Below are positions 1-29,367 of a stretch of 32,000 nucleotides of DNA, piece after piece. Numbering within the stretch: the stretch's first letter is position 1; each line of letters opens with the position of its first letter. Both the position numbers and the translations under genes were made by a program. The notes below the pieces were generated by a model. It saw nothing but the letters and a program-made list of their open reading frames with translations. It had not been told where the DNA came from and did not search any database. This stretch comes from Tannockella kyphosi. Lineage in GTDB: Bacteria > Bacillota_I > Bacilli_A > Erysipelotrichales > Coprobacillaceae. The stretch covers positions 1,470,001 through 1,502,000 of the forward strand of contig NZ_CP088239.1 of NCBI RefSeq assembly GCF_021054785.1. The letters run 5' to 3'.

Positions 1-1740
<1,740 letters not shown>

Positions 1741-2059
1741 TATTGGTGTGTTGTACTTTCGTACACTTTTTTTGTTTTTTGTTTGCTTGAGTTACTATTT
1801 TTTTTGACTATTTATACGTTCGTATTTTTTGGTGTCTTTTTTAATAATAATCTTAGTTTTTCGACTTAAACTAGAAAGACCACAATTCTTAATTTATTAA
1901 TTATTCTGGTTTTAATCTTTCGATCTCTTTTTCTAATCTATTTCGCAATTTGTTATCCAGTTTTCAATGATCTCTTGAGTGAGAGTTTCACTCAAAACTA
2001 AACAGAAATTTTTCGAATTCACAACTTTGGTTACTACCTTGTTTTTTGTTTTACTCCTT
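1741..2059 (-). other. 16S-23S internal transcribed spacer without tRNA genes
   Basis: It lies between the 16S 3' end (2060) and the 23S 5' end (1740). It is AT/T-rich, and I saw no tRNA-like acceptor or T-arm sequence such as the GGGCTATAGCTCAG complement. Confidence 0.85.
1961..2008 (-). promoter_or_regulatory. Spacer copy of a boxA-like 15-mer (1961-1975) plus the 3' half of the 16S processing stem (1994-2008)
   Basis: ttttcaatgatctct at 1961-1975 is repeated exactly at 3686-3700. aaaactaaacagaaa at 1994-2008 is the perfect reverse complement of 3675-3689, so the two flank the 16S gene. The RNA reads CATTGAAAAC, similar to Firmicute boxA (CTTTGAAAAC). Confidence 0.6.
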
Positions 2060-3589
<1,530 letters not shown>

Positions 3590-6582: not shown

Positions 6583-6612
6583 GGATAAACAAATTTAAAA
6601 GGAGTGATAACC

Positions 6613-7314: not shown

Positions 7315-7319
7315 ATAAT

Positions 7320-14826: not shown

Positions 14827-15999
14827 CTATCTTGTAATACCTAGCTCTTTTGCTTTTTTAGCAACCGCATTACTTACCGCATCACTGACACGAGTATCTA
14901 AAGCAGCAGGTATAATATAATCTGCTTTTAATTCGTCTTCTTTTACTAAACTAGCTAAAGCATAAGATGCAGCTAACTTCATTTCTTCTGTTATTTTTTT
15001 AGCACGAACTGATAAAGCGCCTTTAAATAAACCCGGGAACGCTAATACATTATTAATTTGATTTGGGAAATCAGAACGTCCCGTTGCCATAATTGCAACC
15101 CCTGCATCAATAGCGTCTTGATAAGAAATTTCCGGTTCAGGATTTGCCATAGCAAATACAATTGGATTCTCTTGCATTCCTTGAACCATTTCTTTTGTTA
15201 ATACTCCCGGTGCTGAAACACCAATAAATACATCCGCTTCTTTTAAAGCTTCACTCATTGTCATTCGTTTATTTTGTTTATTTGTTATTTCCGTTAATTC
15301 TTTTGATAAGAAATCATATTTATCATTATCTTCTTTTAATAAAATACCATCAATATTAAAAGCATAAATTTCTTTAACACCTAAAGCATGTACCATTTTG
15401 ATAATCGAACTTCCTGCTGCTCCTGCACCAGATACTACAATTGTAATGTCTTCCATTTTTTTATTTACAACTTTTAAAGCATTTATTAATCCAGCACTAA
15501 CCACAATCGCAGTCCCATGTTGATCATCATGAAATACAGGAATATCTAACTCTTTAATTAATGTTCTTTCAATTTCCACACAACGAGGAGCACTAATATC
15601 CTCTAAATTAATCCCTCCAAAAGTTGGAGCTACTGCTTTACAAATTGAAATAATTTCTTGTGTATCTTGGGTATCTAAACATAGAGGAATTGCATCGATT
15701 CCAGCAAATTGTTTAAATAAAATAGCTTTCCCTTCCATTACAGGTAAACTTGCTTCTGGTCCAATATTACCCAATCCTAATACAGCACTACCATCACTAA
15801 TAACAGCAACACTATTTGATTTCCAAGTATATTGATAAGCCATTTCTTTGTTTTTTGCAATTTCCAGGCAAGGTTGCGCAACACCTGGTGTATACGCTAA
15901 AGATAAATCTTCACTTGAAGTTAAAGGAACCTTTAACTCTACTGATAACTTCCCTTTTGCTTTTTCATGCATTTCCAATGATTGTTTATATATATCCAT
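14827..15999 (-). CDS. NAD(P)-dependent malic enzyme (short, ~390-aa type)
   Basis: Motifs LSLAYTPGVA, VISDGSAVLGLGNIG, FHDDQHGTA and the Rossmann GAGAAG are present. An RBS aaggagaaaaga lies upstream of the ATG. Confidence 0.92.
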   Translation of the reverse strand: MDIYKQSLEMHEKAKGKLSVELKVPLTSSEDLSLAYTPGVAQPCLEIAKNKEMAYQYTWKSNSVAVISDGSAVLGLGNIGPEASLPVMEGKAILFKQFAGIDAIPLCLDTQDTQEIISICKAVAPTFGGINLEDISAPRCVEIERTLIKELDIPVFHDDQHGTAIVVSAGLINALKVVNKKMEDITIVVSGAGAAGSSIIKMVHALGVKEIYAFNIDGILLKEDNDKYDFLSKELTEITNKQNKRMTMSEALKEADVFIGVSAPGVLTKEMVQGMQENPIVFAMANPEPEISYQDAIDAGVAIMATGRSDFPNQINNVLAFPGLFKGALSVRAKKITEEMKLAASYALASLVKEDELKADYIIPAALDTRVSDAVSNAVAKKAKELGITR

Positions 16000-16009
16000 T
16001 CTTTTCTCC

Positions 16010-16945
16010 TTAAATTGTACAAACCATAACTGTCATTGTTCCATCTAGAACAAATTCTTTTTTATCAGCACATACGATACAATGACTACCAGCTTTTACT
16101 GCTTTTCCTTCTAATGTACCTTCTCCACTAACAACACTTACCATCATAAAAGGCATATCATTTTTAACTGTAGTAACTCCAGTAAGATCATATTTATCTA
16201 CTTGGAAATATTTTGTAGTAGTCATATGTGTTTTTGTTCCATTTTCAATTGATTCTGCTTTTAAATCATCTCCAGCAGTAGAAACATATGGTACATTGGT
16301 TACATCGATAGATTGACGAACATGTAATTCTCTTTCATTTCCTTTATCATCTACTCGATGATAATCATATACTCGATAGGTAATATCTGATGATTGTTGT
16401 GCTTCATAAATTAATGATCCACTACAAATGGCATGAATAGTCCCTGTTGGAATCGTAAAAAAATCCCCTTCTTTTACTGGAAAAGCATTTAACAGACTAT
16501 CATAATTATCATTTTCAATTGCTTCTACTAATTCTTCTTTCGTCTTAGCATGATGGCCCATTACCATCTTAGTTCCTTCATCTGCTCCCAGTACATACCA
16601 ACACTCTTCTTTTCCTAATGAATTTTCATGTTCTTTTGCATATTCATCATCTGGATGTACTTGAACAGATAAATCATTATTAGCGTCAATTATTTTTACT
16701 AACAAAGGAAATTGATCCCCTTCTAAATTTCCAAATAGCTCACGATGATCATTCCATAATTCTGATAATTTCTTACCAACAAATTCACCTTCACTAATAA
16801 CACAATCCCCATTTTTATGAGCTGATAAAGCCCAACATTCTCCTGTTTTATCACTAGGAATATTATAACCGTATACTTCTTTTAACTTACTTCCACCCCA
16901 AATCATTTCTTTAAATACTGGGTCCATCCATAAAATACCACTCAT
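16010..16945 (-). CDS. manA: Mannose-6-phosphate isomerase, class I (short Bacillus ManA/Pmi type)
   Basis: Motifs PVFKEMIWGG, LSVQVHPDDEYA, GKEECWYVL and IPTGTIHAI give the Q/H/E/H zinc ligand set. I chose the second ATG (16945) because AGGAGA is 6 nt upstream; the ORF-track start at 16951 has no spacer. Confidence 0.9.
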   Translation of the reverse strand: MSGILWMDPVFKEMIWGGSKLKEVYGYNIPSDKTGECWALSAHKNGDCVISEGEFVGKKLSELWNDHRELFGNLEGDQFPLLVKIIDANNDLSVQVHPDDEYAKEHENSLGKEECWYVLGADEGTKMVMGHHAKTKEELVEAIENDNYDSLLNAFPVKEGDFFTIPTGTIHAICSGSLIYEAQQSSDITYRVYDYHRVDDKGNERELHVRQSIDVTNVPYVSTAGDDLKAESIENGTKTHMTTTKYFQVDKYDLTGVTTVKNDMPFMMVSVVSGEGTLEGKAVKAGSHCIVCADKKEFVLDGTMTVMVCTI

Positions 16946-16961
16946 TTTCATTCTCCTTCTA

Positions 16962-18017
16962 CTAGTTTTTATTTACAACTATTATACCACGTTCCATTAA
17001 ATATTTGGTAGTAATTCCATGCCCTTTTATTAGTTTTTTTCCAAACGTACCATCATAGACAATATCTTTACCACAGCTTGGACTTTTCGATTTTAAAAGC
17101 ACTTCATTGATAGCGTTTTCTTGAATTATTTCAAAGCATTTTTTAGCTCCTTGAATAAATTCATACGTTTTATCTACCCCTAATTGATTTATTACTTTGT
17201 CTCCTTGTATTTCACAACTAATCCTTGGAATAGGTAACCCTCCAAGTACTTCAGGACATATACACAATAATCTATTCTTCTTTAAATCTTCCTCTATATC
17301 TTCCAAACCATTATCCTTACCATCATAACGACAACAATGACCCGCTAAACATGCACTAACTGCTTTTGTTGGTGTTTCTAACTGATTTACTAATTCAACC
17401 ATTTGACTAGGGTGACAAATCACTTCTCTTGCCCCTGCTTTTAAAAGTTCTGCCTGGCTACGAAATCCCCAAGTTACACCTATTCCATAAACACAACCAT
17501 AAAAACTAGTTAACATATCTACATCACTATCACCAACATACACAACTTCCCCATGCTTGCAAGATGCTTTCTTTCTGATTGTATCTATCATATAACTATT
17601 AGGTTTTCTAGGATATTCTTTGCTACTACCATACACTGCCATAAATGTATTACTAAATAAATGGTTCACAATTCTAGTAGCCAAATCATGTGGTTTATTT
17701 GTTGCAACAGCCAACAAATAACCTTGTTGTTTTAAATCTTCTAGCATTTTATAAATACCATCATAAACTACCGTTTTATCAAAACAATGCTCGTTATAAT
17801 ATTCAAAAAATAAAGACTTTGCTTCTTCTTTATATTCTTGTTTTTCTCCTAATGCCTTCTCTATCAAAACATCAACACCATTTCCAATAAATTGTTTATA
17901 GGCTTCATAAGGATGTGTTTCTAACCCAATACACTCCAATGCATAATTCACTGCATTTGCAAGATCATACAAAGAATCAATCAATGTTCCATCTAAATCA
18001 AAGATACATAACTTCAT
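16962..18017 (-). CDS. Fusion protein: HAD-superfamily phosphatase (Gph/PpaX-like) N-terminal, DUF523 (TudS-type 4Fe-4S desulfidase family) C-terminal
   Basis: HAD motifs FDLDGTLIDS, VATNKP and VGDSDVD are followed in the same frame by DUF523 signatures SACLAGHCCRYDG, CPEVLGGLPIPR and SPSCG. The ATG at 18017 lies 5 nt after AAGGAGGTG; the ORF-track start at 18089 lacks an RBS. Confidence 0.8.
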   Translation of the reverse strand: MKLCIFDLDGTLIDSLYDLANAVNYALECIGLETHPYEAYKQFIGNGVDVLIEKALGEKQEYKEEAKSLFFEYYNEHCFDKTVVYDGIYKMLEDLKQQGYLLAVATNKPHDLATRIVNHLFSNTFMAVYGSSKEYPRKPNSYMIDTIRKKASCKHGEVVYVGDSDVDMLTSFYGCVYGIGVTWGFRSQAELLKAGAREVICHPSQMVELVNQLETPTKAVSACLAGHCCRYDGKDNGLEDIEEDLKKNRLLCICPEVLGGLPIPRISCEIQGDKVINQLGVDKTYEFIQGAKKCFEIIQENAINEVLLKSKSPSCGKDIVYDGTFGKKLIKGHGITTKYLMERGIIVVNKN

Positions 18018-18120
18018 AGTGCCACCTCCTTTACCCATCATACTCTCACTTCTATCATCAAACAAGCTTCTTTTCTTTTTTTTATACATATGCTAGAATA
18101 AAGTATATGAGGTGAGGAAG

Positions 18121-18321
18121 ATGAACAAAAAGAGCACAATTTTCATGGAATTAGGGACTGTATTAGGGATGGCTATCGCATTAGTTTTCACCATTATTTT
18201 TGTCTATATCATTAAACAATATACAAATACTGTTCCTTTTCTATTTATTGGTTTTGCAATAATCGGAAGAGTCATTGGATATGGTTTAGATACTATTGTT
18301 AATAAATCAAATAATCATTAA
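18121..18321 (+). CDS. Small membrane protein, two predicted TM helices, function unknown
   Basis: 66 aa with hydrophobic stretches LGTVLGMAIALVFTIIFVYII and VPFLFIGFAIIGRVIGYGL. An RBS GAGGTGAGGA lies upstream of the ATG, and the gene is followed by a strong terminator. Confidence 0.55.
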   Translation: MNKKSTIFMELGTVLGMAIALVFTIIFVYIIKQYTNTVPFLFIGFAIIGRVIGYGLDTIVNKSNNH

Positions 18322-18323
18322 TG

Positions 18324-18350
18324 AAAAAAGCGGAAATTCCGCTTTTTTTT
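18324..18350. terminator. Bidirectional rho-independent terminator
   Basis: aaaaaagcgg-aaatt-ccgctttttttt has the stem flanked by an A-run and a T-run. It serves the small + strand gene and the convergent AKR genes. Confidence 0.8.
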
Positions 18351-18394
18351 CTCTCATTAATCTCAGGGAGGAGATAATGTGAGAAACAATTCAT

Positions 18395-19231
18395 TTATTC
18401 AAACAAGATATAATCACTATCCTTGTATGAACCACCACAGGTATCGATTGCATCGATAATTTCCATATCTTCTTGACTAATTATAAAGTCTAATTGAAGA
18501 TTTTCTATCATTCTATCTTTTGAAACACTTTTAGATAGTGGTAAAACATCATGTTGTAATGCATATTGAATACATAATTGAGATAAACTAACCCCATATT
18601 TATTAGGTATCTCTTGCAACTTATCACATTGGAATACCCGTCCATTTGCTAATGGACTGTATCCAACAACAACAATATTATGTTGTTTACAATATTCTCT
18701 TAATTCATTATGTAAACATGATGGATGAAATTCAATTTGATTTACCATTGGTAAAATCATAGCACTTTCCATAATTTCTTGCAAATGATGGATTTTAAAA
18801 TTACTAACACCAATTGATTTAATTCTTCCTGCATTGTATAAATCTTCCATCGCACGCCATGTTTCTTTATTAGATGCAATATAGGTATCATTACATCCTT
18901 TTGGTACAGGCCAATGAATTAAATATTGGTCCAAATAATCAACTCCTAAATCTTGACAAGTTTTCTCGAAAGCAGCTATTGTTTCATGATATCCTCTTAC
19001 TGAGTTCCATAATTTACTAGTAATAAAAATATCCTCTCTTTTTACACCACTTAACTGTATTCCTTGACCCACTTCTATTTCATTATCATACTTAGCGGCG
19101 CAATCCAAATGAGTAAAACCGCATTGCAATGCATCACACACTGCTTGTGATGTAACATTATTTTCTGCTTTCCAAGTACCAAAACCAATTTTTGGCATTT
19201 CTAATCCATTACTTAAAATAAATTTTTCCAT
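18395..19231 (-). CDS. Aldo-keto reductase (YvgN/YtbE / 2,5-diketo-D-gluconate reductase-like), paralogue 1
   Basis: 278 aa with the AKR catalytic tetrad context: HLDCAAKYDNE (D, Y), ITSKLWN (K) and LIHWP (H). VSNF and MVNQIEFHP are also present. Confidence 0.9.
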   Translation of the reverse strand: MEKFILSNGLEMPKIGFGTWKAENNVTSQAVCDALQCGFTHLDCAAKYDNEIEVGQGIQLSGVKREDIFITSKLWNSVRGYHETIAAFEKTCQDLGVDYLDQYLIHWPVPKGCNDTYIASNKETWRAMEDLYNAGRIKSIGVSNFKIHHLQEIMESAMILPMVNQIEFHPSCLHNELREYCKQHNIVVVGYSPLANGRVFQCDKLQEIPNKYGVSLSQLCIQYALQHDVLPLSKSVSKDRMIENLQLDFIISQEDMEIIDAIDTCGGSYKDSDYILFE

Positions 19232-19240
19232 TATATTACC

Positions 19241-20086
19241 TTAACTTTCATATGGGATATTATCACTGTCTTTTAAAGAACTTTCACAAGATGTGATAGC
19301 ATCAATTGCTTGCATGTCTTCATCACTAATAACAAAATCTAATTCTAAATTTTTCTTTATTCTCTCATTTGTTATGCTTTTTGCAAGAGGGATTACATCA
19401 TGTTGTATCGCATATTGAATACAAATTTGTGCTAAAGATACTCCATATTTTTCAGGAAATGGTTTTAATTCTTCACAACGGAATACTCTACCGTTTCCAA
19501 AAGGACTATATCCTGTAATTTGAATTCCTAATTTTTTACAGTATCCTCTTAATTCATGATGTAAACAAGAGGGATGGAATTCAATCTGATTTACCATCGG
19601 AACAATCTTAGCACTTTCCAACAATTCTTCTAAATGATGAATTTTAAAATTACTAACACCAATAGACTTAATTCTACCTGCTTCATACAAGTCTTCCATT
19701 GCTCGCCAAGTTTCTTTATTAGATTCAACATAGGTATCATTACACCCTTTTGGAACTGGCCAATGAATTAAATACTGATCTAAATAATCTACACCTAAAT
19801 CAGAACATGTTTTTTCAAATGCAGCAATAGTTTGATCATATCCTCTTGCATTATTCCATAATTTGCTAGTAATAAAAATATCTTCTCTTTTTACACCACT
19901 TTTTTTAATCCCTAATCCTACTTCTTTTTCATTTTTGTAAATTGCAGCTCCATCTACATGGCTATACCCACATTGTAAGGCATAACAAACAGATTCTACT
20001 GTCACTTCTGGTTTTTCACCTGGGCAACAAGAACCAAAGCCAGGAGCAGGCATTTCCAACCCATTTCTCAATTTAAACATTTTCAT
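19241..20086 (-). CDS. Aldo-keto reductase, paralogue 2
   Basis: It carries the same tetrad (HVDGAAIYKNE, ITSKLWN, LIHWP). The central block is near-identical to paralogue 1. The ATG at 20086 follows GGGAGAA, and the longer ORF-track start at 20113 would run into a terminator hairpin. Confidence 0.88.
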   Translation of the reverse strand: MKMFKLRNGLEMPAPGFGSCCPGEKPEVTVESVCYALQCGYSHVDGAAIYKNEKEVGLGIKKSGVKREDIFITSKLWNNARGYDQTIAAFEKTCSDLGVDYLDQYLIHWPVPKGCNDTYVESNKETWRAMEDLYEAGRIKSIGVSNFKIHHLEELLESAKIVPMVNQIEFHPSCLHHELRGYCKKLGIQITGYSPFGNGRVFRCEELKPFPEKYGVSLAQICIQYAIQHDVIPLAKSITNERIKKNLELDFVISDEDMQAIDAITSCESSLKDSDNIPYES

Positions 20087-20105
20087 AAATATTCTCCCAT
20101 ATTCC

Positions 20106-20136
20106 AAAAACAAGAGTGAATATGTTCTCTCTTGTT
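20106..20136 (-). terminator. Terminator-like hairpin between PMI-like gene A and the AKR genes
   Basis: On the minus strand, AACAAGAG-12 nt-CTCTTGTT is followed by TTTGG, giving an effective T-run of 5. It lies 30 nt downstream of the gene A stop and just upstream of the AKR2 RBS. Confidence 0.5.
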
Positions 20137-20165
20137 CTTGGTTTTATTTTATTTTGTCAAAAATA

Positions 20166-21926
20166 TTATTCGTAAGCATTTCCCATATCCATAAATACTT
20201 CTAGGATAGCTAATTCTTTTTCAGGCTTCCCTACTGGACGTACAACGAATTGTCCACAACTAGCAGGAACATATACCGCTTCTGCATATCGAATTGGCAT
20301 TGGTTCAAATGAACCATCCACACTTTCAATACTAGCTTCATCCCCTTCGACTAAGATCATTAATGTAACACGATCATTTGTTTCAAAGAATACACTTTTT
20401 GTAAACCAATAACGATCTACTGTTAATAATTCTAATTCCATTGTACCACTATGTTCTTTTCTCCAACCAGTTCCTCTAGCAATTTCAGAACGTTTAGAAA
20501 CTAAATGATCCATTACATATTTAGTTTGGAATTTTTCTTGAATTACTTGAGAACCACGTTCAATATTAATTGGTCTAGGTTTTCCATCTGCATCAATACG
20601 TCCCCAGTCCCATAATTTAAATGTTTGATATCCAATTGGGTTAATTTCTAGAACTACTGTATCTTTACCAGAACAGTGAATTGTTCCACTAGGAATAAAG
20701 ATATGATCATGAGTTTTCATAGGAATACGATTAATCCATTTTTCATCATCGAATTCACCAGTAACTTGAGCTTCCTTGAAAGCTTCTACTAATTCATCAA
20801 CATTCACTCCATCTTTTGTTCCTAAATATACTGATGAATCTTCTGTCGTATCCATCATATAATAACTTTCATAATGTCCAAAATGATTATTAAATACATC
20901 ATGAGAATAAGCAATATCTGGATGTACTTGTAAGCTTAAGTTTCCTCCACCCCAAGTATCTAAGAAGTCACATCCGATTGGGCAGTTATAGCCAAACCAG
21001 AAGAAGTTTTGATTTCCTAAGAATTCAATTGGTTGATAGTGATAAATATCTCTACCTACTACTCTAAATTCATTATCTCCAATTTTTGCTAACGCACTTT
21101 GATGATTTGTCCAACCATGCATACCCCATGCACTGTTATCATTTTCTAAACCACCACCTAATACATCTTGACACCAATGTCCACCCCAAATACCTCTATT
21201 AAAGAAAGTATCTAATTTAAATGGAGTTGATGCAAAAGTTCTTAATGTTTGACGATAATCTTCACCACTTGTCATTAATGGTTTTTCAATATCATCCCCA
21301 TCAATTACAAAATCCATATCTTCAAAAGATCTTCTTTTATGACGATCTAATAAAATTGATTCTACGAAATTAAATGTTTTTTCTTTTGTTAATGGATCTT
21401 CATCAGGATTGTCCATAGCCCAGTTTGTTAACTCTCCAAAATATCCACTTTTAACTCTTTGGATAGTGATATTGTTATAAACAAAGATATCACCTTTTGT
21501 AATAACAGCTGCTCCAACACCATAAACTACTGTTAAACCATCAAATCCTTCAATTTCAGCTTTTGTAGCTTCTACTTTTGCTTCATCGAAATATTCATCC
21601 ACATGCCCTAAAGCAAACACACCATTAATTCTATCGTCAGTAATATATGGACGATAAATTTTTTCTTGGAATTTTTCTTCACTAATTAAAACACTGTCAC
21701 TACAAATAACATGATCTGGATTTAATTTTTCTATCACTTCACTAATAATTTTTGCATTATCAATATCATAATAATAATCAATTACTAATACACATTTTCC
21801 TGCTTTTTCATCAATTTTACTTTTAATAACATCTCTAATTTCATCATACCCTGTCCAAGAAACTGTCCCAGGTACTGGTAAAACTGGATGTAATTCAAAA
21901 TTTCTTCTTTTTCTAGTCAATGTCAT
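20166..21926 (-). CDS. Two-domain protein A: unassigned ~230-aa N-terminal domain plus a type-I phosphomannose-isomerase-like cupin
   Basis: 586 aa. The C-terminal half aligns by eye to the local ManA: GIWGG, LSLQVHPD, GHYESYY and IPSGTIHCS, so the Q/H/E/H ligand set is kept. The N-terminal half has alternating beta/alpha-like segments (VLVIDYY, LTVVYGVGAA) with no motif I can name. An RBS GGAGGT lies 8 nt upstream of the ATG. Confidence 0.7.
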   Translation of the reverse strand: MTLTRKRRNFELHPVLPVPGTVSWTGYDEIRDVIKSKIDEKAGKCVLVIDYYYDIDNAKIISEVIEKLNPDHVICSDSVLISEEKFQEKIYRPYITDDRINGVFALGHVDEYFDEAKVEATKAEIEGFDGLTVVYGVGAAVITKGDIFVYNNITIQRVKSGYFGELTNWAMDNPDEDPLTKEKTFNFVESILLDRHKRRSFEDMDFVIDGDDIEKPLMTSGEDYRQTLRTFASTPFKLDTFFNRGIWGGHWCQDVLGGGLENDNSAWGMHGWTNHQSALAKIGDNEFRVVGRDIYHYQPIEFLGNQNFFWFGYNCPIGCDFLDTWGGGNLSLQVHPDIAYSHDVFNNHFGHYESYYMMDTTEDSSVYLGTKDGVNVDELVEAFKEAQVTGEFDDEKWINRIPMKTHDHIFIPSGTIHCSGKDTVVLEINPIGYQTFKLWDWGRIDADGKPRPINIERGSQVIQEKFQTKYVMDHLVSKRSEIARGTGWRKEHSGTMELELLTVDRYWFTKSVFFETNDRVTLMILVEGDEASIESVDGSFEPMPIRYAEAVYVPASCGQFVVRPVGKPEKELAILEVFMDMGNAYE

Positions 21927-21939
21927 ATATCATTACCTC

Positions 21940-23721
21940 CTAACAGTTTACATATACTTCTAGAACAGCTAATTCTTCACCAGCTGATTTTCCATAAGGA
22001 CGAATAGTGTATTGTCCTGCTGCAGGTGGTACAAAGACAGCTTCTGCATAGTGCATAATCATTGGTTCAAATTCACCGTCTAAACTTTCAAGAATTGCTT
22101 CTTCACCTTCAACTAATACATGAATCATGATGCAATCATTTGGATCAAAGTGAACTGCATTTTTAAACCAATATCTATTTACTTCCATTGGTGATTCAAA
22201 TGTATTTGTTCCACTTCTTTCTTTACGCCAACCATGTCCACAAGCAATTTCTTGTTTTTTAGAAATAAATTGATCTTTTATCATAGTAGTTTGGAATTCT
22301 TCTTGGATTACATTTTTACCATGATCAATATTAATTGGTCTAGGTTTTCCATCATAATCAAGACGACCCCAATCCCATAATTTAAATGTTGTAAATGAGA
22401 ATAAATCGATTTCTAATGTTAATGTATCTTTTGCAGAAGAATGAATAGTTCCTCCTGGGATAAAGATATGATCATGTTTTTTCATTGGGAAATTATTAAT
22501 CCATTTTTCATCATCAAACTCACCAGTAACTTGTGCTTCTTCAAAAGCTTCTACTAATTCATCTAATTTAACACCATCTTTTGTTCCTAAATATACAGAA
22601 CTGTTTTCACATGCATCTAACATGTAATAACTTTCATAATGACCCCATTTAGAGTTAAATTCTTCTTGTGCATAAGAGATAGTTGGATGAACTTGTAAAC
22701 TTAAGTTTTGACCACCCCAAGTATCTAAGAAATTCACATGTAAAGGACATCTGTATCCATATAGATACCAAATTTTACGTCCTAATGTTTCTTTTGGTGC
22801 GTATTGAACTAAATCTGTTGATGGGAATTCAAATAATGCATTATCTAACTGTGCCGCTACAGCTTGCCAATCTAAATAACCATGAACACCCCAAGCAGAG
22901 TTTTCTAAACCTTCTGCAACACCTAATACTTTTTGAGCCCAGTTACCACCCCAAACTCCAGCTAAGAAAATAGGGATAGGTTTGAATGGACTTGTTGCAA
23001 ATTTCATAACAACAGTATCAAACTGACTTTGTGTAAGCATAACTACATCATCATCTCTATTAAAGTCAACAATGTAATCACATTCTTTCATCATTTTTCT
23101 TTTATGTTTATCTTGAACTATACATTCAACAAATAACCAACGTTTTTCTTTTCTTAAATAATCTTCATCATAGTTTTTAGCACCCCAGTTATCCAAACCT
23201 TCTTTCCATTTATCTTTGATAGTTTGAGAACTGATATTACCGTAAACTAATACATCTGGATTGCACACTAAACTAGCAGCAACACCGTGCACTACAACTA
23301 AACCTTTTGCTTCTTCTATTTGTTTTTTAGTTGCTTCAATACATTCAGGATCTAAGAAATCTGCAATTGTTCCTACAATATACACCCCATTTACACGATC
23401 TTCTGTGATATATTGAGCAAATTTTTTAGATATAATACTTTCATCATATTTACAATCATCGCCATCAACAATAAGTGATGGAGATAATTTATTGGCAATT
23501 TCTTTTACCAAATTTTCATTAATACCATGATAATAGTCAATACAAACTACTACTTTTTCTTTGTTTAAAGACCCAATTTTCTTATTCAATTCTTCAACAA
23601 TTGCATCAATACCTTTTGTTGCAACAACTCCTGGTACTGCTTTTACTGGGTATTTATCAAAATTTGGAACTCTGTTTTCTACTTCGTACATTTTTCTAAC
23701 ATGACAATAAAATATTGTCAT
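21940..23721 (-). CDS. Two-domain protein B: paralogue of A (N-terminal unknown domain plus PMI-like cupin)
   Basis: 593 aa with GVWGG, LSLQVHPT, GHYESYY and IPGGTIHSS. Long blocks are identical to A (SSVYLGTKDGV, DELVEAF.EAQVTGEFDDEKWIN). The start is uncertain: ATG 23721 sits 2 nt after AAAGGAG, and ATG 23691 aligns better with the N-terminus of A. Confidence 0.7.
   Translation of the reverse strand: MTIFYCHVRKMYEVENRVPNFDKYPVKAVPGVVATKGIDAIVEELNKKIGSLNKEKVVVCIDYYHGINENLVKEIANKLSPSLIVDGDDCKYDESIISKKFAQYITEDRVNGVYIVGTIADFLDPECIEATKKQIEEAKGLVVVHGVAASLVCNPDVLVYGNISSQTIKDKWKEGLDNWGAKNYDEDYLRKEKRWLFVECIVQDKHKRKMMKECDYIVDFNRDDDVVMLTQSQFDTVVMKFATSPFKPIPIFLAGVWGGNWAQKVLGVAEGLENSAWGVHGYLDWQAVAAQLDNALFEFPSTDLVQYAPKETLGRKIWYLYGYRCPLHVNFLDTWGGQNLSLQVHPTISYAQEEFNSKWGHYESYYMLDACENSSVYLGTKDGVKLDELVEAFEEAQVTGEFDDEKWINNFPMKKHDHIFIPGGTIHSSAKDTLTLEIDLFSFTTFKLWDWGRLDYDGKPRPINIDHGKNVIQEEFQTTMIKDQFISKKQEIACGHGWRKERSGTNTFESPMEVNRYWFKNAVHFDPNDCIMIHVLVEGEEAILESLDGEFEPMIMHYAEAVFVPPAAGQYTIRPYGKSAGEELAVLEVYVNC
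23701..23721 (-). repeat. Perfect 9-3-9 inverted repeat covering the annotated start codon of PMI-like gene B
   Basis: On the minus strand, ATGACAATA-TTT-TATTGTCAT. The 5' arm begins with the ATG at 23721. Confidence 0.6.
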
Positions 23722-23746
23722 AACTCCTTTCCTACTTTTTTATAAT

Positions 23747-23779
23747 AAAAGGGTTACTAGAATCTAAAGTAACCCTTTT
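23747..23779 (-). terminator. Intra-locus terminator/attenuator-like hairpin between PTS IID and PMI-like gene B
   Basis: aaaagggttac (23747-23757) pairs with gtaaccctttt (23769-23779) around an 11-nt loop. On the minus strand the stem is followed by TTTTATTAT. Confidence 0.5.
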
Positions 23780-23790
23780 TTTGTTTTCTA

Positions 23791-24618
23791 CTAAATAATT
23801 CCTGCTACTGTACAAACAGTTGCGAATACTAATAAAGTTAAAATTAATTTAATTGCACTGAATTTTTTGTATTTCAATAAATAATATCCTACTAAAACTA
23901 AACACATAGGAATTAATTTAGGGAAAATTGCATCAAGTTGACTTTGAATGTTTACTGTATTAGTTTCACTAACGAATTCAGTAACAACATTGAAAGATAC
24001 GAAACTAGCAGTAATTGATCCTACTACTGTAAGACCTAGAACAGATAAAGCTTCTTGGATCTTTGCCATTTTCTTTCCTAATAAATCTTTAGCAGCATCA
24101 CGTCCAATTTGATATCCTTGAGTGAAGAATATTCTAGACATAACTAAACATGAACCAAAATACATTACGATTGCGAAGATTGCTCCAAGTGGGCTACCTC
24201 CAGCAGCTAAACCGATACCAATACTTAATGCGATAGGAGTAATAGTTCCTTGGATAACTGCATCACCGATACCAGCTAAAGGTCCCATTAAACCAACTTT
24301 AATATTATTTACAAATTCGTCTGAAATGTCAGCACCTTTTGCAATTTCTTCTTCTACAGAAGCTACGATACCATTTGTGATTGAACCAAAAATTGGATTT
24401 GTATTATAGAATACTGAATGACGTTTCATTGCAGCAACCATTTTTTCTGGATCATCACTGTAATATTTTTCAAAAATTGGTAACATTGATAATAAGAAAC
24501 CTGGTTGTTGTAAACGTTCAAACCCGAATACACCTAAGTTATATTTGTACCAGAAGTACCAAACCTTATCAAGATCTTTTTTTGTTAAAGGTTCTACTAC
24601 TTTTTCTGTTGAACTCAT
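23791..24618 (-). CDS. PTS mannose-family EIID component
   Basis: 275 aa with the typical IID N-terminus (LTKKDLDKVWY..FERLQQPGFLLSMLP) followed by membrane segments. The start ATG overlaps the IIC stop (ATGA). Confidence 0.9.
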   Translation of the reverse strand: MSSTEKVVEPLTKKDLDKVWYFWYKYNLGVFGFERLQQPGFLLSMLPIFEKYYSDDPEKMVAAMKRHSVFYNTNPIFGSITNGIVASVEEEIAKGADISDEFVNNIKVGLMGPLAGIGDAVIQGTITPIALSIGIGLAAGGSPLGAIFAIVMYFGSCLVMSRIFFTQGYQIGRDAAKDLLGKKMAKIQEALSVLGLTVVGSITASFVSFNVVTEFVSETNTVNIQSQLDAIFPKLIPMCLVLVGYYLLKYKKFSAIKLILTLLVFATVCTVAGII

Positions 24619-25415
24619 AATAATTCATCCTCCTCATCTACTGTCCCAACTGATTGACTACCAGATTCAGCAGTGAACATATAATACATAACAGCTAAAC
24701 AAGTACCGATTACTGCTACAGCAGTCATGTCTAACCCTAAATATCCTATACATACGATACCTAAAACATAATAAATAATGAATTTTGTTTCTTTTAATGT
24801 ATAAGTTAACAAGATTGAAACCCCAACAACTGGTAAGATACCACCTAAGTTACCTGCAATATCTAATACTAATTGAGGTACAGCAGCTAAGAAATCAGCA
24901 GCGAATGCATTTCCTAACATTACAGTTGTGAAAGTTAAACCAAAACGAACAACAAAGCTTGTCACAATTGGTAACACTTTGTAAGTGAATTTTAATTTTT
25001 TAACATCATTTGCTTCAATACATTTATCACCTAAGTTATAGAATACAGAACAGAATACTTCATAAGCTGTAAATACTGCAGCTCCTAATACCCCAATTGT
25101 TGCTGCTAAAGCAACTGCAACTTCCGCATCTGCCCCAGCAATCATTGCAAGTGCAATTGATGGATAAGAAACGAATGCCATATCTGCTACAGCTACCCCA
25201 CCAATTAACGCATTTCCTAAATACATTGCTTGGATTGCAGCTCCGATGATAGCACCAGTAGCCATATCTCCTAAAATAATACCAACGATAACCCCACCAA
25301 CTAATGGTTTTGATAAACAGTCTGCCCAGATAATCCCAAATGGTTGAGGGTTTTCTACTGAACCAAACCAACATGCGATACCTATTAACGCGGCTTGTAA
25401 TACACTAACTTCCAT
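24615..25415 (-). CDS. PTS mannose-family EIIC component
   Basis: 266 aa, highly hydrophobic, with an IIC-Man-like N-terminus (LQAALIGIACWF). An RBS GAAGGAGG lies upstream, and the gene starts 2 nt after the IIB stop. Confidence 0.9.
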   Translation of the reverse strand: MEVSVLQAALIGIACWFGSVENPQPFGIIWADCLSKPLVGGVIVGIILGDMATGAIIGAAIQAMYLGNALIGGVAVADMAFVSYPSIALAMIAGADAEVAVALAATIGVLGAAVFTAYEVFCSVFYNLGDKCIEANDVKKLKFTYKVLPIVTSFVVRFGLTFTTVMLGNAFAADFLAAVPQLVLDIAGNLGGILPVVGVSILLTYTLKETKFIIYYVLGIVCIGYLGLDMTAVAVIGTCLAVMYYMFTAESGSQSVGTVDEEDELL

Positions 25416-25417
25416 GT

Positions 25418-25921
25418 TTATTTTCCTCCTTCATAAACTTTCTTGGCTTCCGCCCAATTTAATCCTTTTTCATCTGGAGTTAATTTGAATTTTAATTCAA
25501 TGTTTTGTGAATCCAGATATTCACAATATTCTACATCTTTCTCTGAAAGGTAAACATTATTATATGCACGTATAGTATTAGGCGCTTTACTTGCAGTACC
25601 GAAAATAATTTCATTACCGAAGTCTACCCCTCTTTTTTTAAGTTCATATAATTGTTCCACTTTTTTTGCAACTAGATAATAATTCTTTTTACCTTCAATA
25701 GCTTTCGGTATTTTTTCTACCGCTTCGTCTACACCAAAGATATAAACTTTCTTTCCTAACGCATTACCAGCTTCAGTAAATATTTCTGTTAAGAAACTGT
25801 CTTCGAAAAACTTATCATCTACAACTAAGATGATTGCATCTCCAACACGAACCTTTGTCCATAAAACAACTACTTGTCCATGGATTAAACGGTCGTCAAT
25901 TCGTACTAAACTAAGTGCCAT
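25418..25921 (-). CDS. PTS mannose-family EIIB component
   Basis: 167 aa. The signature LVRIDDRLIHGQV contains the phosphorylatable His. Confidence 0.92.
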   Translation of the reverse strand: MALSLVRIDDRLIHGQVVVLWTKVRVGDAIILVVDDKFFEDSFLTEIFTEAGNALGKKVYIFGVDEAVEKIPKAIEGKKNYYLVAKKVEQLYELKKRGVDFGNEIIFGTASKAPNTIRAYNNVYLSEKDVEYCEYLDSQNIELKFKLTPDEKGLNWAEAKKVYEGGK

Positions 25922-25960
25922 TATAACGCCTCCTTTTCATGATATACCTGAATCATGATC

Positions 25961-26350
25961 TTACAATTTTTTTACTGCAGTTTTACCAGTTTCCATAGCT
26001 TGGTTTACCAAATCTTCCGTACTCATATCTGTTTGTGAGAAAATCGCCAATTCAATTACCATTGCTAGGTTCATTCCCGCAACTACCGCATAGTCAACTT
26101 CATGTTTACGTATATAACGGAAACATTCGTTGTACGGTGTAGCGTTTGGTATGTCAGTAACAATAATTATTTCGTCAAATGTTTCATTCATTTTTGAAAT
26201 TTTATCTTCTAACGCAGCTCGAAAGCTTTCTACACCATCTTCGCCTAGAGATATGGTATCCACCACTTCTTGGGGTCCCATAATCATTTCTAAACTGTCT
26301 TTCACTCCTACACACATTGTAGAATGACTCACTAATAAAATCCCTCTCAT
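25961..26350 (-). CDS. PTS mannose-family EIIA component
   Basis: 129 aa. The N-terminus ILLVSHSTM carries the His-9-type phosphorylation site, and the fold pattern is EIIA-Man (IIVTDIPNATP). An RBS GAAAGGAGA lies upstream. Confidence 0.85.
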   Translation of the reverse strand: MRGILLVSHSTMCVGVKDSLEMIMGPQEVVDTISLGEDGVESFRAALEDKISKMNETFDEIIIVTDIPNATPYNECFRYIRKHEVDYAVVAGMNLAMVIELAIFSQTDMSTEDLVNQAMETGKTAVKKL

Positions 26351-26420
26351 AGATTCTCCTTTCTAACCTCCCAATTAATGAAAAGATTGTGATGACCAAC
26401 AAACATCAATACATCATGTT

Positions 26421-26444
26421 GTTGTAATGTAGTAACATTACAAC
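26421..26444. promoter_or_regulatory. Perfect 10-4-10 palindrome, candidate operator of the adjacent GntR/HutC regulator
   Basis: gttgtaatgt-agta-acattacaac has a central GT-N4-AC core as in GntR-family sites. It starts 2 nt downstream of the -10 box and so covers the predicted transcription start. Confidence 0.6.
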
Positions 26445-26445
26445 T

Positions 26446-26473
26446 ATTATAGCACATATGTAAGCGGTGTCAA
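26446..26473 (-). promoter_or_regulatory. Near-consensus sigma-A promoter of the PTS locus
   Basis: The minus strand reads TTGACA (26473-26468), a 16-nt spacer, then TGcTATAAT (extended -10, TATAAT at 26451-26446). Confidence 0.7.
26458..26472. promoter_or_regulatory. Catabolite-responsive element (cre, CcpA site)
   Basis: atgtaagcggtgtca fits WTGNAANCGNWNNCW at every constrained position. It overlaps the -35 box and the spacer. Confidence 0.6.
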
Positions 26474-26535
26474 TCATGTTTTCATTAATTTATGTACTTT
26501 TTGTGAATTTTTTATAATGACTTTTTATCTTGTCG

Positions 26536-26585
26536 CAAAATAAAAAAGAGGTTCTATTTTATGTATAACATAAAATAGAATCTCT
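26536..26585 (-). terminator. Rho-independent terminator of the GntR/HutC gene
   Basis: 17-nt arms (26547-26563 and 26569-26585) have one non-Watson-Crick position and a 5-nt loop. On the minus strand the stem is followed by TTTTTTATTTT. Confidence 0.8.
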
Positions 26586-26613
26586 TTCTCTGTTTTCGTC
26601 CTATAAAACTAGA

Positions 26614-27360
26614 TTATAATAAATTGATTTTTAACTCATAATCATTTGCAAGATATTTTGAAGCATTGTATTCTACTGGAAAACCTTTACTAAAAGCTTT
26701 TCTTTTTCTTTCTATTACCGCAAAAGATTCTTCTAATTGAAAATAGTCATGTTCCTTTTCAGTTGCAACATGCGCCGAAATAACTTCATTTACCGCATCA
26801 ACACGATATCCCTTTTCTTCTAACATATCATATAATGACCCTTTAAAATCTTCTACTGTACAATGAATTTTAGGATTTAAGTAAGATTCAGAATGGGTAA
26901 CTACCAAATTATCTACAAGATGTTGTCTAATCATAAAAATACATTTCATACTAACCGTAATTCCAAAGAAATCTCTTATTTCAGCAGGAGGTAAAGCATA
27001 TTCAAGTTTTACTAATTTACGTTCTTGATTATCATTATTTTCTTTTACTCCTAAATAACTAGATTGTAAAGAAGTACTAATTAAATTATCATTTCTTATA
27101 ACGACTGTACCAATCCCTCGTTCTCTAGACACTAACCCCTTAACAAAAAGTCTATCCAACGCTTTACGGACAGTTACTCTAGAGACCTCGTATTTCTCGA
27201 CCAATTCTTTTTCACTAGGAATTAAATCGCCTTGTTTATAAACTTTATTTAAAATATCCGCTTCTATTATATCGTACAATTGGCTCCATAATGGTTTTTC
27301 ACCTGCACCTTGAATAAGTCTCACAATAATCCCTACTTTCTTTTCACTTTCAATTCTCAT
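26614..27360 (-). CDS. GntR-family transcriptional regulator, HutC subfamily (wHTH plus UTRA effector domain)
   Basis: The N-terminal wHTH reads PLWSQLYDIIEADI..GDLIPSEKELVEKYEVSRVTVRKALDRL. The C-terminal ~150 aa is UTRA-like. The start is uncertain: ATG 27360 lacks an RBS, and the alternative GTG 27324 follows TAGGGA. Confidence 0.85.
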   Translation of the reverse strand: MRIESEKKVGIIVRLIQGAGEKPLWSQLYDIIEADILNKVYKQGDLIPSEKELVEKYEVSRVTVRKALDRLFVKGLVSRERGIGTVVIRNDNLISTSLQSSYLGVKENNDNQERKLVKLEYALPPAEIRDFFGITVSMKCIFMIRQHLVDNLVVTHSESYLNPKIHCTVEDFKGSLYDMLEEKGYRVDAVNEVISAHVATEKEHDYFQLEESFAVIERKRKAFSKGFPVEYNASKYLANDYELKINLL

Positions 27361-27514
27361 TATAAGCTTTTTTCAAATTTTGTAAATGAATTTCCTTTTA
27401 TAATACTAATCTTTTTCTTTATTATTTTCTTTTTTTAAAAAAGTCATACTATTTACAATCACTGAACTATAATATTAAAAAGAAACTGATTTGACAGTTA
27501 AGGGAGAAAAGAAC

Positions 27515-28141
27515 ATGAAAGTATTACTAATGAATGGAAGTTGTAATAAAAATGGTTGTACCAATCGAGCTCTTGAAGAATTTTCTAGTGTCTTACATCA
27601 AAATAATATTGAAACAGAAATCTATCATATTCCAAGTACTCCGATTAAAGATTGTATAGGTTGTGGAGGCTGTAAAGCGAAAGCAAACGGTTGCGTTTTT
27701 AAAGATGATGGGGTCAATGACTTTATTGAAAAAGCAAAAGGATCAGATGCGATTGTTTTAGGAAGCCCTGTTTATTATGCACATCCTAGTGGACGTATTT
27801 TGTCATTTTTAGACCGAGCTTTCTTTGCTGGAGGAAGTGCTTTTATGCATAAACCAGGTTTCGCCTTGGTTTCTGCTAGGCGTGCTGGAACCAGCTCTTC
27901 TTTGGACGTTTTACATAAATATTTTTCAATTGCACAAATGCCAATTGTTTCTTCAAGTTATTGGAATATGGTGCATGGCAACACACCCCAAGAAGTGGAA
28001 CAAGATTTAGAAGGGTTACAAATCATTCGTCATGGCGCTAGTAACATGGTTTGGTTGCTATCTTGTATTGAACTAGGAAAGCAAAATAATATTATTGCTC
28101 CAAATAACAAAAAAACGAATAAAACTAATTTTATTCGTTAA
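27515..28141 (+). CDS. Flavodoxin-like NAD(P)H-dependent FMN reductase family protein with an Isf-type cysteine motif (iron-sulfur flavoprotein-like)
   Basis: It has MKVLLMNGS..., the compact motif CIGCGGCKAKANGC (C-X2-C-X2-C-X6-C) and the flavodoxin-like GSPVYY. The ATG at 27515 follows AAGGGAGAA. Confidence 0.75.
   Translation: MKVLLMNGSCNKNGCTNRALEEFSSVLHQNNIETEIYHIPSTPIKDCIGCGGCKAKANGCVFKDDGVNDFIEKAKGSDAIVLGSPVYYAHPSGRILSFLDRAFFAGGSAFMHKPGFALVSARRAGTSSSLDVLHKYFSIAQMPIVSSSYWNMVHGNTPQEVEQDLEGLQIIRHGASNMVWLLSCIELGKQNNIIAPNNKKTNKTNFIR
28114..28139 (-). terminator. Terminator of the carboxypeptidase gene, embedded in the 3' coding end of the convergent flavoprotein gene
   Basis: aacgaataaaa (28114-28124) pairs with ttttattcgtt (28129-28139) around the loop ctaa. 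On the minus strand it is followed by TTTTTGTTATTT. Confidence 0.55.
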
Positions 28142-29367
28142 TATCTTCTTAAATACATTTTTTTATATTTGTTATAATAGCGAATACCGAAGCATATCCC
28201 TATCAAGATTAAAACAACACATAGCGCAATAAATAATGGACTTCCAAATAAGAGTGTCGTGATGCTTAATTCTATATTTTGAGTACTAATAACCTCTTTT
28301 TCATAAAGCACTATTCCTTGATAACTACAAGTAATGGTACCAATTGACTCTCCTTCTTCAATAGGAGCACTTAATTGATCAAAGTCATAAGTTATGCTTA
28401 ATTCTTCATAATCAAAATCAATAGGTAGAAAAGCAATAACTTCTTGATCAATAAATACATCAAACATCATATCATCAACTGCATTTTCAACAAAAATCGA
28501 ATCAACAAGATCATCTACTTGATAAACAACAGTATCTTGATATTCTACTTCTAAGTAATCAATAATAGTATTAGTTGATACAACGGGTGCACCACTAACG
28601 GTCGTATCCGCTTTTGCTGTTACAACAATAACTTCTCTTCCATTAACATCTACTAAAGAAGCCAAACAAGATTGTGCTTCATCCGTATAACCTGATTTAC
28701 ATCCGATAATACGGCTAGTATCATATCCATAAAGATCAGAATAGTAGACACCTCCACTTACCCAACTATGAGTTTCATTACTTGTAGCATAAGAACGTGT
28801 ACTAAACACTTCTAAAAATGTTTCATTTTCTATTGCACTCTGCAATATAACCGCAATATCATAAGCAGTTGAATAATGATTTTCATCATGAATTCCCGTT
28901 AAATTAGTAAAATTTGTATTTTCCAAACCAAGATCAGCAACATATTCATTCATAGCTTCCACCATTGCTTCTATACTTCCAAATAAGTTATAAGCTAGTG
29001 CTTGACATGCATCTGCACCCGAAGGGAGGATTACTCCATATAACAAATCTTTATATGTTGTAACTTCTCCTACATAATACCATGCTGCAGAAGCGCCAGT
29101 TTCCCATATCCCATCCAAATCCGCATCGCTAATAACAACTGTTTCATCCAAATCTTCAATTGCATTAATTGCCACAATAGCAGTCACAATCTTTGTCATA
29201 CTAGCAGGATACATCATCTCTTGATCCTCTTTTTGATAAAGTATCAAACCTGTTTCCTTGTCAATTGCAACAGCATATTCGCTAATTACTTCTAACGCTG
29301 ATACTGGCACGATACTACTTAATAGGATCATTACTATTAAAAATGTGTTTATAATCTTTCTTTTCAT
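28138..29367 (-). CDS. D-alanyl-D-alanine carboxypeptidase (peptidase S11, PBP5-like) with N-terminal signal sequence and C-terminal membrane anchor
   Basis: 409 aa with the SxxK motif PASMTKIV, the KTG-type motif CKSGYT, a PBP5 C-terminal-like block (APIEEGESIGTI) and a terminal TM helix (LFIALCVVLILIGICFGI). Confidence 0.85.
   Translation of the reverse strand: MKRKIINTFLIVMILLSSIVPVSALEVISEYAVAIDKETGLILYQKEDQEMMYPASMTKIVTAIVAINAIEDLDETVVISDADLDGIWETGASAAWYYVGEVTTYKDLLYGVILPSGADACQALAYNLFGSIEAMVEAMNEYVADLGLENTNFTNLTGIHDENHYSTAYDIAVILQSAIENETFLEVFSTRSYATSNETHSWVSGGVYYSDLYGYDTSRIIGCKSGYTDEAQSCLASLVDVNGREVIVVTAKADTTVSGAPVVSTNTIIDYLEVEYQDTVVYQVDDLVDSIFVENAVDDMMFDVFIDQEVIAFLPIDFDYEELSITYDFDQLSAPIEEGESIGTITCSYQGIVLYEKEVISTQNIELSITTLLFGSPLFIALCVVLILIGICFGIRYYNKYKKMYLRRY

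Follow-up and report, generated by a model that had tools for sequence, protein, structure and literature searches.

A gene locus of Tannockella kyphosi (assembly GCF_021054785.1, contig NZ_CP088239.1), located at positions 18395-27360 of the 32,000-nucleotide stretch of DNA that we analysed (called the window below, with coordinates counted from its first letter), is a sugar operon of the phosphotransferase system (PTS) built around an uncharacterised family of two-domain isomerases. Two members of this family, related to phosphomannose isomerase (PMI) and called here long PMI A and long PMI B, are encoded between a mannose-family (Man-family) PTS and two aldo-keto reductases (AKRs). Our preferred reading, to which we assign a probability of roughly 40%, is that the operon is inducible and serves the breakdown of a hexose related to mannose, or perhaps of a hexitol, and that the AKRs perform accessory carbonyl reduction.

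Several described systems resemble parts of this arrangement. The sorbose operon (sorFBAM) of Klebsiella and L. casei likewise combines a Man-family PTS with a reductase acting on a phosphorylated sugar and with a dedicated repressor. However, the window locus lacks the MDR-type sorbose-1-phosphate reductase and the SDR-type glucitol-6-phosphate dehydrogenase of that system, and carries AKRs and PMI-type isomerases instead. The mngRAB system of E. coli, which includes a mannosylglycerate PTS and a GH38 phospho-alpha-mannosidase, has a GntR/UTRA repressor like that of the window, and its PTS yields mannose-6-phosphate (M6P). Members of one clade of the long PMI family (clade M) occur in loci of this kind. 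However, the E. coli PTS is of the fructose family, no GH38 gene is present in the window, and the window long PMIs belong to the other clade (clade S). Bourand and co-workers are said to have described in 2013 a ribitol operon of L. casei in which a mannose-type PTS serves a polyol. That operon is similar in that a Man-family PTS feeds a short pathway of redox and isomerase steps, but its ribitol-5-phosphate dehydrogenase, epimerase and phosphoketolase are all missing from the window locus. Lastly, the best matches of the two window AKRs are the AKR5G glyoxal/methylglyoxal reductases YvgN and YtbE of B. subtilis and DkgA of E. coli. The window enzymes differ in being tandemly duplicated at the 3′ end of a PTS operon and in scoring below the DkgA cut-off. 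In full-text literature searches we came across no characterised operon with this gene content, and searches on the cupin phosphoglucose isomerase of Salmonella, on bacterial mannose-6-phosphate reductase, and on anhydrofructose or anhydromannitol in connection with a PTS provided no characterised counterpart.

The features of the locus and of its immediate downstream neighbour are as follows, in the direction of transcription.

26614-27360, minus strand: HutC-subfamily GntR regulator (PF00392, 5.5e-20; PF07702, UTRA, 3.6e-19)
26534-26598, minus strand: terminator hairpin closing the transcription unit of the regulator (31-nt arms, 81% complementary, then a T run)
26446-26473, minus strand: operon promoter TTGACA-16-TATAAT with extended TG (12 of 12 consensus matches)
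26459-26472, no strand assigned: putative cre (CcpA) box over the -35 hexamer (exact match to TGWAANCGNTNWCA)
26421-26444, no strand assigned: candidate HutC operator, palindrome GTTGTAATGT-N4-ACATTACAAC (unique in the window)
25961-26350, minus strand: PTS EIIA, mannose family (PF03610, 7.9e-19)
25418-25921, minus strand: PTS EIIB, mannose family (PF03830, 7.6e-30)
24615-25415, minus strand: PTS EIIC, mannose family (PF03609, 3.6e-49)
23791-24618, minus strand: PTS EIID, mannose family (PF03613, 1.7e-83)
23747-23779, minus strand: terminator-like hairpin in the gap between EIID and long PMI A (12-bp stem, then UUUUAUUAU; -15.1 kcal/mol, z = -2.4)
21940-23721, minus strand: long PMI A, 593 aa (kinase-like N-domain, residues 1-244, and PMI bicupin, residues 245-593)
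20166-21926, minus strand: long PMI B, 586 aa, paralog of A
20104-20141, minus strand: hairpin in the gap between long PMI B and AKR2 (-19.6 kcal/mol, z = -4.5)
19241-20086, minus strand: AKR2, 281 aa from the ATG at 20086 (PF00248, 4e-48)
18395-19231, minus strand: AKR1, 278 aa (PF00248, 8.5e-50)
18317-18361, no strand assigned: bidirectional terminator (-16.6 kcal/mol, z = -4.7), shared with a convergent 69-aa open reading frame (ORF)
16010-16951, minus strand: canonical short class I PMI, ManA (TIGR00218, 209 bits against a cut-off of 116)

An earlier interpretation made from the DNA letters alone (the sequence-only reading) had described nine same-strand genes behind one promoter. We confirm the nine ORFs, their coordinates and their location on the minus strand, but only eight of them follow the promoter, and the regulator forms a transcription unit of its own. 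Its remarks on layout agree with our results: EIIC and EIID overlap by 4 nt (24615-24618), the gaps are 2 nt between EIIB and EIIC, 13 nt between long PMI A and B and 9 nt between AKR2 and AKR1, the terminator after AKR1 folds strongly, and the HutC-type regulator upstream has GntR and UTRA domains and its own terminator. AKR2 most likely starts at the ATG at 20086, which is preceded by a GGGAGA ribosome-binding site and gives the same 281-aa protein as the NCBI model, and not at the TTG at 20113. The PTS, isomerase and AKR blocks may plausibly be transcribed together, but the terminator-like hairpins that follow both EIID and long PMI B make a single transcript of all eight genes uncertain. 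The clustering of the genes is not a matter of chance, since the same set recurs in other genomes in varied order.

Fold and metal site of the long PMIs

Neither long PMI A nor long PMI B matches any Pfam model even at E = 10 (the thresholds of PF20511 and PF21621 are not reached), and their TIGR00218 scores of 25.3 and 20.8 bits lie far below the cut-off of 116. An AlphaFold (AF2) model of long PMI A built on 54 homologs, with a mean confidence (pLDDT) of 94, nevertheless has the bicupin fold of type I PMI. Residues 245-593, the C-terminal half, superpose on B. subtilis PMI (1QWR) with TM scores of 0.83-0.86 (Foldseek, E = 2e-22 to 5e-23), and also on the Salmonella and Candida enzymes. Thus, the label of 590-aa PMI-cupin proteins chosen in the sequence-only reading is right as to fold, but profile searches, at 21-25 bits, do not bear it out.

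The Gln, His, Glu and His Zn ligands of type I PMI are found as Q343, H345, E363 and H427, which align with the motifs of 1QWR and are invariant in 129 family sequences. E437, K447 and the segment T445-x-K447-L-x-D-W-x-R453 are conserved in at least 97% of the same members, and the segment from T445 to R453 aligns with the phosphate-binding region of PMI. As in type I PMI, there is a Glu equivalent to the proposed catalytic Glu and a basic residue, here Lys447, at the position of the phosphate-binding Arg. A difference is seen at residue 361, two positions before the Zn-ligand Glu, where the canonical, catalytic Lys is replaced by His in clade S and by Gln in clade M. This Lys is retained in the ManA protein of the window and in the short PMI of related gene cassettes. 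In Salmonella PMI, K132 is the Lys before the Glu and R274 is the phosphate-binding Arg.

The long PMIs are also twice the length of type I PMI, owing to an additional N-terminal domain of 240 aa. Modelled alone (residues 1-244, pLDDT 90), this domain weakly resembles P-loop kinases, including type I pantothenate kinase (PanK), NRK1 and UMP/CMP kinase (TM 0.45-0.55, E = 3e-6), as well as 3C8U, annotated as a ‘fructose transport system kinase’. A Walker A motif of the form GxxxxGK[ST] was not found in the domain, where strand 1 is followed by D62-Y-Y-H-G66-x-N-E. We rejected the possibility that it is an active P-loop kinase because the Walker A position has this other sequence. It is a degenerate kinase-like domain. 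Long PMI A is 100% identical to a database protein of T. kyphosi (Erysipelotrichaceae). Long PMI A and long PMI B are 49% identical over their full length, and A-type and B-type proteins are separate conserved lineages.

Two clades with different gene neighbourhoods

When clustered at 90% identity, the matches to the long PMI query form more than 5,400 groups. A genome scan gave at least 600 pattern-matching stretches, and at least 595 of these encode a relative. These relatives span Bacillota, Enterobacterales, Vibrio (Vibrionaceae), Aeromonas, Bacteroidota, Spirochaetota and Chloroflexota. With thousands of members, the family has no Pfam model, and we found no characterised member. In databases its members uniformly carry the name ‘class I mannose-6-phosphate isomerase’.

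In a neighbour-joining tree of 129 sequences, the midpoint root separates 78 members (clade M) from the other 51 (clade S), which include both window copies. There is little overlap between the gene contexts of the clades, as judged from the neighbours at 73 clade M loci and 14 clade S loci. Clade M proteins are found beside a ROK kinase (24 of 73), a PF06560 cupin of about 188 aa (28) or of about 268 aa (24), a LacI regulator (19), a GH38 alpha-mannosidase (14), a GH92 enzyme (9) and SusC (8), and each of these is absent from all 14 clade S loci. Over the separate counts made, GH38 occurs at 11-14 clade M loci and a ROK kinase at 24-28. A short PMI accompanies clade S at 11 of 14 loci versus 1 of 73 for clade M, a YvgN-like AKR at 5 of 14 versus none, and a DERA-type aldolase at 5 of 14 versus 1 of 73. 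Two or more long PMIs share a locus in 7 of the 14 clade S cases and in none of the 73 clade M cases.

The contexts of clade M include loci with a MngA/MngB-like PTS and GH38, and M6P is the expected intermediate in clade M settings. Gene context therefore supports the predicted conversion of M6P to fructose-6-phosphate (F6P), but for clade M only. In six Enterobacterales loci, a LacI regulator, a long PMI, Man-family PTS components IIA-IID and two PF06560 cupins lie between dapB/carAB and ispH. The two cupins, of about 188 and 268 aa, are of the ‘glucose-6-P isomerase’ type. Clostridia and Bacteroidota carry the same cupin-type isomerase trio, with a ROK kinase and an MFS transporter replacing the PTS.

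The sequences of the clades differ as well. Residues R165, R173, D253, E285, N286, R320, T360 and Q361 are conserved in at least 95% of clade M. In clade S these residues are lost or changed, and N356, G360, H361 and D455 are fixed instead. The clade split, together with the canonical PMI encoded beside clade S proteins, suggests that function has been over-transferred in many database annotations.

An alternative account of the window would be an ordinary mannose (or glucose or fructose) PTS operon in which the long PMIs are redundant M6P isomerases and the AKRs are bystanders that detoxify aldehydes such as methylglyoxal. The intact Zn site of the long PMIs is consistent with this idea, and the neighbourhoods of clade M imply that the family isomerises M6P. 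However, redundancy is hard to invoke for clade S, whose members mostly occur with a canonical short PMI, often as two to four PMI-type genes per operon. The loss in clade S of the charged clade M residues R165, R173, D253, E285 and R320 also argues against an ordinary isomerase. We regard this account as somewhat unlikely.

Clade S proteins occur in two recurrent kinds of cassette. Type I consists of a GntR/UTRA regulator, a Man-family PTS, a Cof-type HAD phosphatase, a distinct subfamily of short PMI, one or two long PMIs and a DERA-type aldolase. Some type I loci add an AKR, and some add an unknown protein of about 320 aa. Gene order differs among a mouse-gut metagenome-assembled genome (MAG), Massilimicrobiota, Coprobacillus, an unclassified Bacillota MAG and a Pelolinea MAG (Chloroflexota). 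The combination of PTS, two long PMIs, GntR/UTRA regulator and AKR is found in Tannockella, in the Massilimicrobiota/mouse-gut group and in the Pelolinea MAG. The window locus is a reduced type I cassette, comprising the PTS, the A/B pair, the regulator and two AKRs.

Thus, the gene association on which the sequence-only reading was based recurs in independent lineages with changed gene orders. That reading had missed the partners conserved in relatives, namely the short PMI subfamily, the Cof-type HAD and the DERA-type aldolase. A metagenome scan with a single protein returned 5 loci, all with an already-known arrangement. The additional protein of some type I cassettes (about 310-320 aa, no Pfam match, predicted membrane segments) is encoded between EIID and the Cof-type HAD (L009, 8910-9881; L011, about 14334; L093, 13051-13974).

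The DERA-type aldolase, which is located in or beside the cassette in four arrangements, raises the possibility of a route for deoxy or dicarbonyl hexoses. In such a route, 3-deoxyglucosone or glucosone would be imported, reduced by an AKR, isomerised by the PMI-type enzymes and, in relatives, cleaved by the aldolase to glyceraldehyde-3-phosphate and a small carbonyl compound. This gives a specific form to the oxidised or dicarbonyl substrate suggested in the sequence-only reading, a suggestion that our results neither strengthen nor refute. AKRs of the methylglyoxal reductase type are present, the HAD phosphatases could act as safety valves, and by chemical reasoning 3-deoxyfructose-6-phosphate shares its D-erythro tail with deoxyribose-5-phosphate. 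However, the scheme is purely a matter of chemical plausibility. The window contains no DERA gene, no dehydratase or other gene specific for deoxy sugars is present, and a second type of cassette has no aldolase. We therefore view this route as quite unlikely.

This second type of cassette (type II) pairs the same short PMI subfamily with galactitol-family EIIB and EIIC, a long PMI, an MtlD-like dehydrogenase, EIIA_2, a GNAT acetyltransferase and an MtlR-like PRD regulator, and DERA-type aldolases are absent. The arrangement is conserved in four loci (at about 6-15 kb within each locus), sometimes followed by EI and HPr. Type II resembles a polyol operon, the product of which is apparently not simply F6P.

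Cassettes of this polyol type bring a hexitol substrate into consideration for the window. The PTS might import mannitol or sorbitol as the hexitol phosphate, for which the mannose-type ribitol PTS of L. casei is a precedent, the AKRs might then serve as hexitol-phosphate dehydrogenases yielding M6P or glucose-6-phosphate, and the long PMIs might convert these products to F6P. The AKR step would be the reverse of that catalysed by the mannose-6-phosphate and aldose-6-phosphate reductases of plants, and the pairing of AKR and PMI mirrors the mannitol pathway of celery, in which an AKR is likewise paired with a PMI. The organism itself is compatible with this proposal, since T. kyphosi comes from the gut of a seaweed-eating fish and has been reported to use mannitol (PMC11333855). 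However, the window AKRs are AKR5G-like and not of the plant AKR2 type, thermodynamics does not favour NADP+-dependent oxidation of polyols to aldoses, and relatives with the same cassette inhabit mouse and human guts. These points leave the hexitol route improbable.

Reductases, transporter and control region

AKR1 and AKR2 are a recent tandem duplicate pair, 70% identical. The catalytic tetrad of AKR1 (D43, Y48, K73 and H106) is readable in the motifs LDCAAKY, TSKLW and LIHWP. Its best match in the PDB is YvgN (3e-74), and YtbE is also among the best structural relatives. Against the DkgA/DkgB equivalogs of NCBIfam, the two AKRs score 215 and 202 bits (cut-off 425) and 163 and 154 bits (cut-off 327).

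The window AKRs are only 42-47% identical to the AKRs of related cassettes and are no closer to them than to YvgN, whereas the cassette AKRs of other lineages are 52-71% identical to one another. Orthology of the window and cassette AKRs is thus disfavoured, at 46% identity, the same value as to YvgN, and independent recruitment of the window pair appears more likely. YvgN-like AKRs are attached to the cassette in at least three lineages, and to judge from the sequences this apparently happened more than once. The link between AKR and cassette is real in the sense that a YvgN-type AKR has been attached repeatedly, although the enzymes themselves are generic and may serve in detoxification. This weakens the sequence-only reading, in which the AKRs form part of the pathway.

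The YvgN-like character of the reductases also speaks for the account of an ordinary operon with bystander AKRs. The closest homologs of AKR1 (63-66% identity, with Fusobacterium as one source) stand alone next to genes for MarR and FMN reductase or in unrelated neighbourhoods, an FMN reductase gene flanks the window locus too, and a hairpin separates the AKRs from the PMIs. However, the recruitment of YvgN-like AKRs in at least three lineages counts against this account. In Fusobacterium, the FMN reductase and MarR genes adjoin the AKR1 homolog in two loci (L096 and L097, 5402-7837). In the window, the gene at 27491-28141 (plus strand), which diverges from the HutC gene, encodes an NADPH-dependent FMN reductase (PF03358). 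By analogy, the pairing of FMN reductase and AKR hints at detoxification of electrophiles.

All four Man-family PTS components (IIA, IIB, IIC and IID; TC 4.A.6) score above the Pfam gathering thresholds. EIIA has the motif VSHS with His9, presumably the position of the phosphorylated His of E. coli IIA-Man (ManX), and EIIB has the motif RIDDRLIHGQV with a phosphorylatable His14. No component reaches an NCBIfam equivalog cut-off that would assign the PTS to a substrate subfamily (Man, Aga, Gam, Sor and others). The best NCBIfam matches are galactosamine/GalNAc-type models, at less than half of the threshold. EIIC matches an AgaW-like model best (107 bits against a cut-off of 300), and EIID scores 184 bits against 400 with the galactosamine IID model and 163 against 365 with the mannose IID model. 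The same PTS subfamily (EIID 41-47% identical) occurs alongside long PMIs of both clades. Pfam searches thus bear out three of the assignments in the sequence-only reading, namely the GntR/UTRA regulator, the complete set of Man-family IIA-IID components and the two PF00248 AKRs.

The regulator has an N-terminal GntR winged helix-turn-helix domain and a C-terminal UTRA effector domain, which places it in the HutC subfamily, and it scores below all NCBIfam equivalog cut-offs. The promoter at 26473-26446 is the best in the 12.5 kb scanned, and the putative cre box is the only exact consensus match in the 32 kb, with 0.10 expected by chance. The palindrome, which is perfect, has 10-bp arms and lies directly downstream of the -10 hexamer (0.01 expected by chance), is the probable HutC operator. 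We found no riboswitch or leader RNA from Rfam within 15500-28500. Taken together, the predicted promoter, cre box and palindrome mark an inducible catabolic operon.

These control elements also bear on a biosynthetic role. Because PMI, AKR and HAD genes are found together in related cassettes, one could envisage fermentative mannitol production as an electron sink, proceeding from F6P to M6P (PMI), then to mannitol-1-phosphate (AKR) and finally to mannitol (HAD). This reading is disfavoured by the cre box and the repressor operator, which along with a dedicated uptake PTS are hallmarks of catabolism. Moreover, the window has no Cof-type HAD, and the organism consumes mannitol. We therefore consider mannitol production extremely improbable.

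Proposed pathway and surrounding genes

For the catabolic operon that we favour, the gene content, the folds, the metal site, the conserved cassette and the split of contexts between the clades are shown by the data. We infer what class of substrate is used, in what order the steps run, what the AKRs do and where the regulators bind. The Man-family PTS would import and phosphorylate the substrate, and the two clade S long PMIs would carry out Zn-dependent aldose-ketose isomerisation of the resulting sugar phosphate, in a step related to the conversion of M6P to F6P but probably not identical to it. A canonical short PMI would complete entry into glycolysis. In relatives this enzyme is encoded inside the cassette, and the adjacent ManA may serve here. 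The YvgN-like AKRs might be accessory NADPH-dependent carbonyl reductases that act on the aldehyde form or on a by-product. The HutC regulator would repress at the palindrome, which overlaps the transcription start, until a phosphorylated intermediate relieves repression, and CcpA would repress at the cre box.

Three observations argue that the window long PMIs are not simple M6P-to-F6P isomerases but catalyse a related reaction: a canonical short PMI is encoded alongside, PMI-type genes are multiplied and residues close to the active site are changed. A clade S reaction other than the plain M6P-to-F6P conversion is thus plausible. Gene context in the wider family points to M6P chemistry, which weakens the sequence-only reading of the locus.

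Besides the solitary, detoxification-type homologs of the AKRs, several observations count against the operon function that we favour. Through the hairpins at 23747-23779 and 20104-20141, the AKRs may be uncoupled from the PTS. Within the 32-kb window we found neither a short PMI of the cassette type nor a Cof-type HAD or DERA-type aldolase, and the pathway here may therefore be incomplete or different from that of relatives. Some clade S long PMIs, as an A/B pair or singly, are accompanied only by a divergent GntR/UTRA regulator, with no PTS nearby (L004, 8001-12388; L092, 2784-5379). Isomerase and regulator may therefore represent the ancestral core of the module. Lastly, plain redundancy of the long PMIs as M6P isomerases is a possibility.

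A bolder alternative is that clade S long PMIs catalyse an undescribed isomerisation in a new PTS-dependent catabolic pathway, together with the short PMI, an AKR or MtlD-like redox enzyme, HADs and the DERA-type aldolase, and that the N-domain is a sugar-phosphate-binding or regulatory module. Candidate substrates would be a non-standard hexose, hexitol or heptose, such as a Maillard sugar of the deoxy or dicarbonyl kind, a derivative of a seaweed polyol or a manno-heptose. We hold this to be rather doubtful. The undescribed pathway of the sequence-only reading survives in part: we found no characterised operon of this kind, the isomerase family falls below Pfam and NCBIfam thresholds, and the gene set co-occurs elsewhere, but the AKRs are generic. 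Clade S cassettes may encode an as yet undescribed carbohydrate route of gut anaerobes, among them symbionts of fish that eat seaweed. Knowledge of the substrate would also account for the fusion of a cupin isomerase to a kinase-like domain that lacks a P-loop.

Just downstream of the locus, ManA and a HAD_2-DUF523 fusion protein are encoded in a separate transcription unit. ManA is 31-36% identical to the cassette short PMIs, compared with 47-76% among the latter, and orthology with them is not supported. Its linkage to the operon as a downstream partner is uncertain. The fusion protein is encoded directly upstream of ManA (16962-18089, minus strand) and comprises HAD_2 (residues 28-194) and PF04463, ‘2-thiouracil desulfurase’/DUF523 (residues 244-373). 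At 22% identity, we rejected it as a counterpart of the aldolase-adjacent HAD of relatives. The convergent ORF that shares the AKR1 terminator (18112-18321, plus strand) lies between that terminator and the fusion gene and codes for a predicted membrane protein of 69 aa.

Elsewhere in the window, a LytTR-type response regulator and a large multi-pass membrane protein resembling a histidine kinase are encoded at 6604-9017 (plus strand) with a 4-nt overlap, and are unrelated to the sugar locus. The start of the window is GC-rich because it carries rRNA genes on the minus strand (1-3586), namely the 5′ part of 23S rRNA (1-1740, cut at the edge) and a complete 16S rRNA (2062-3586).

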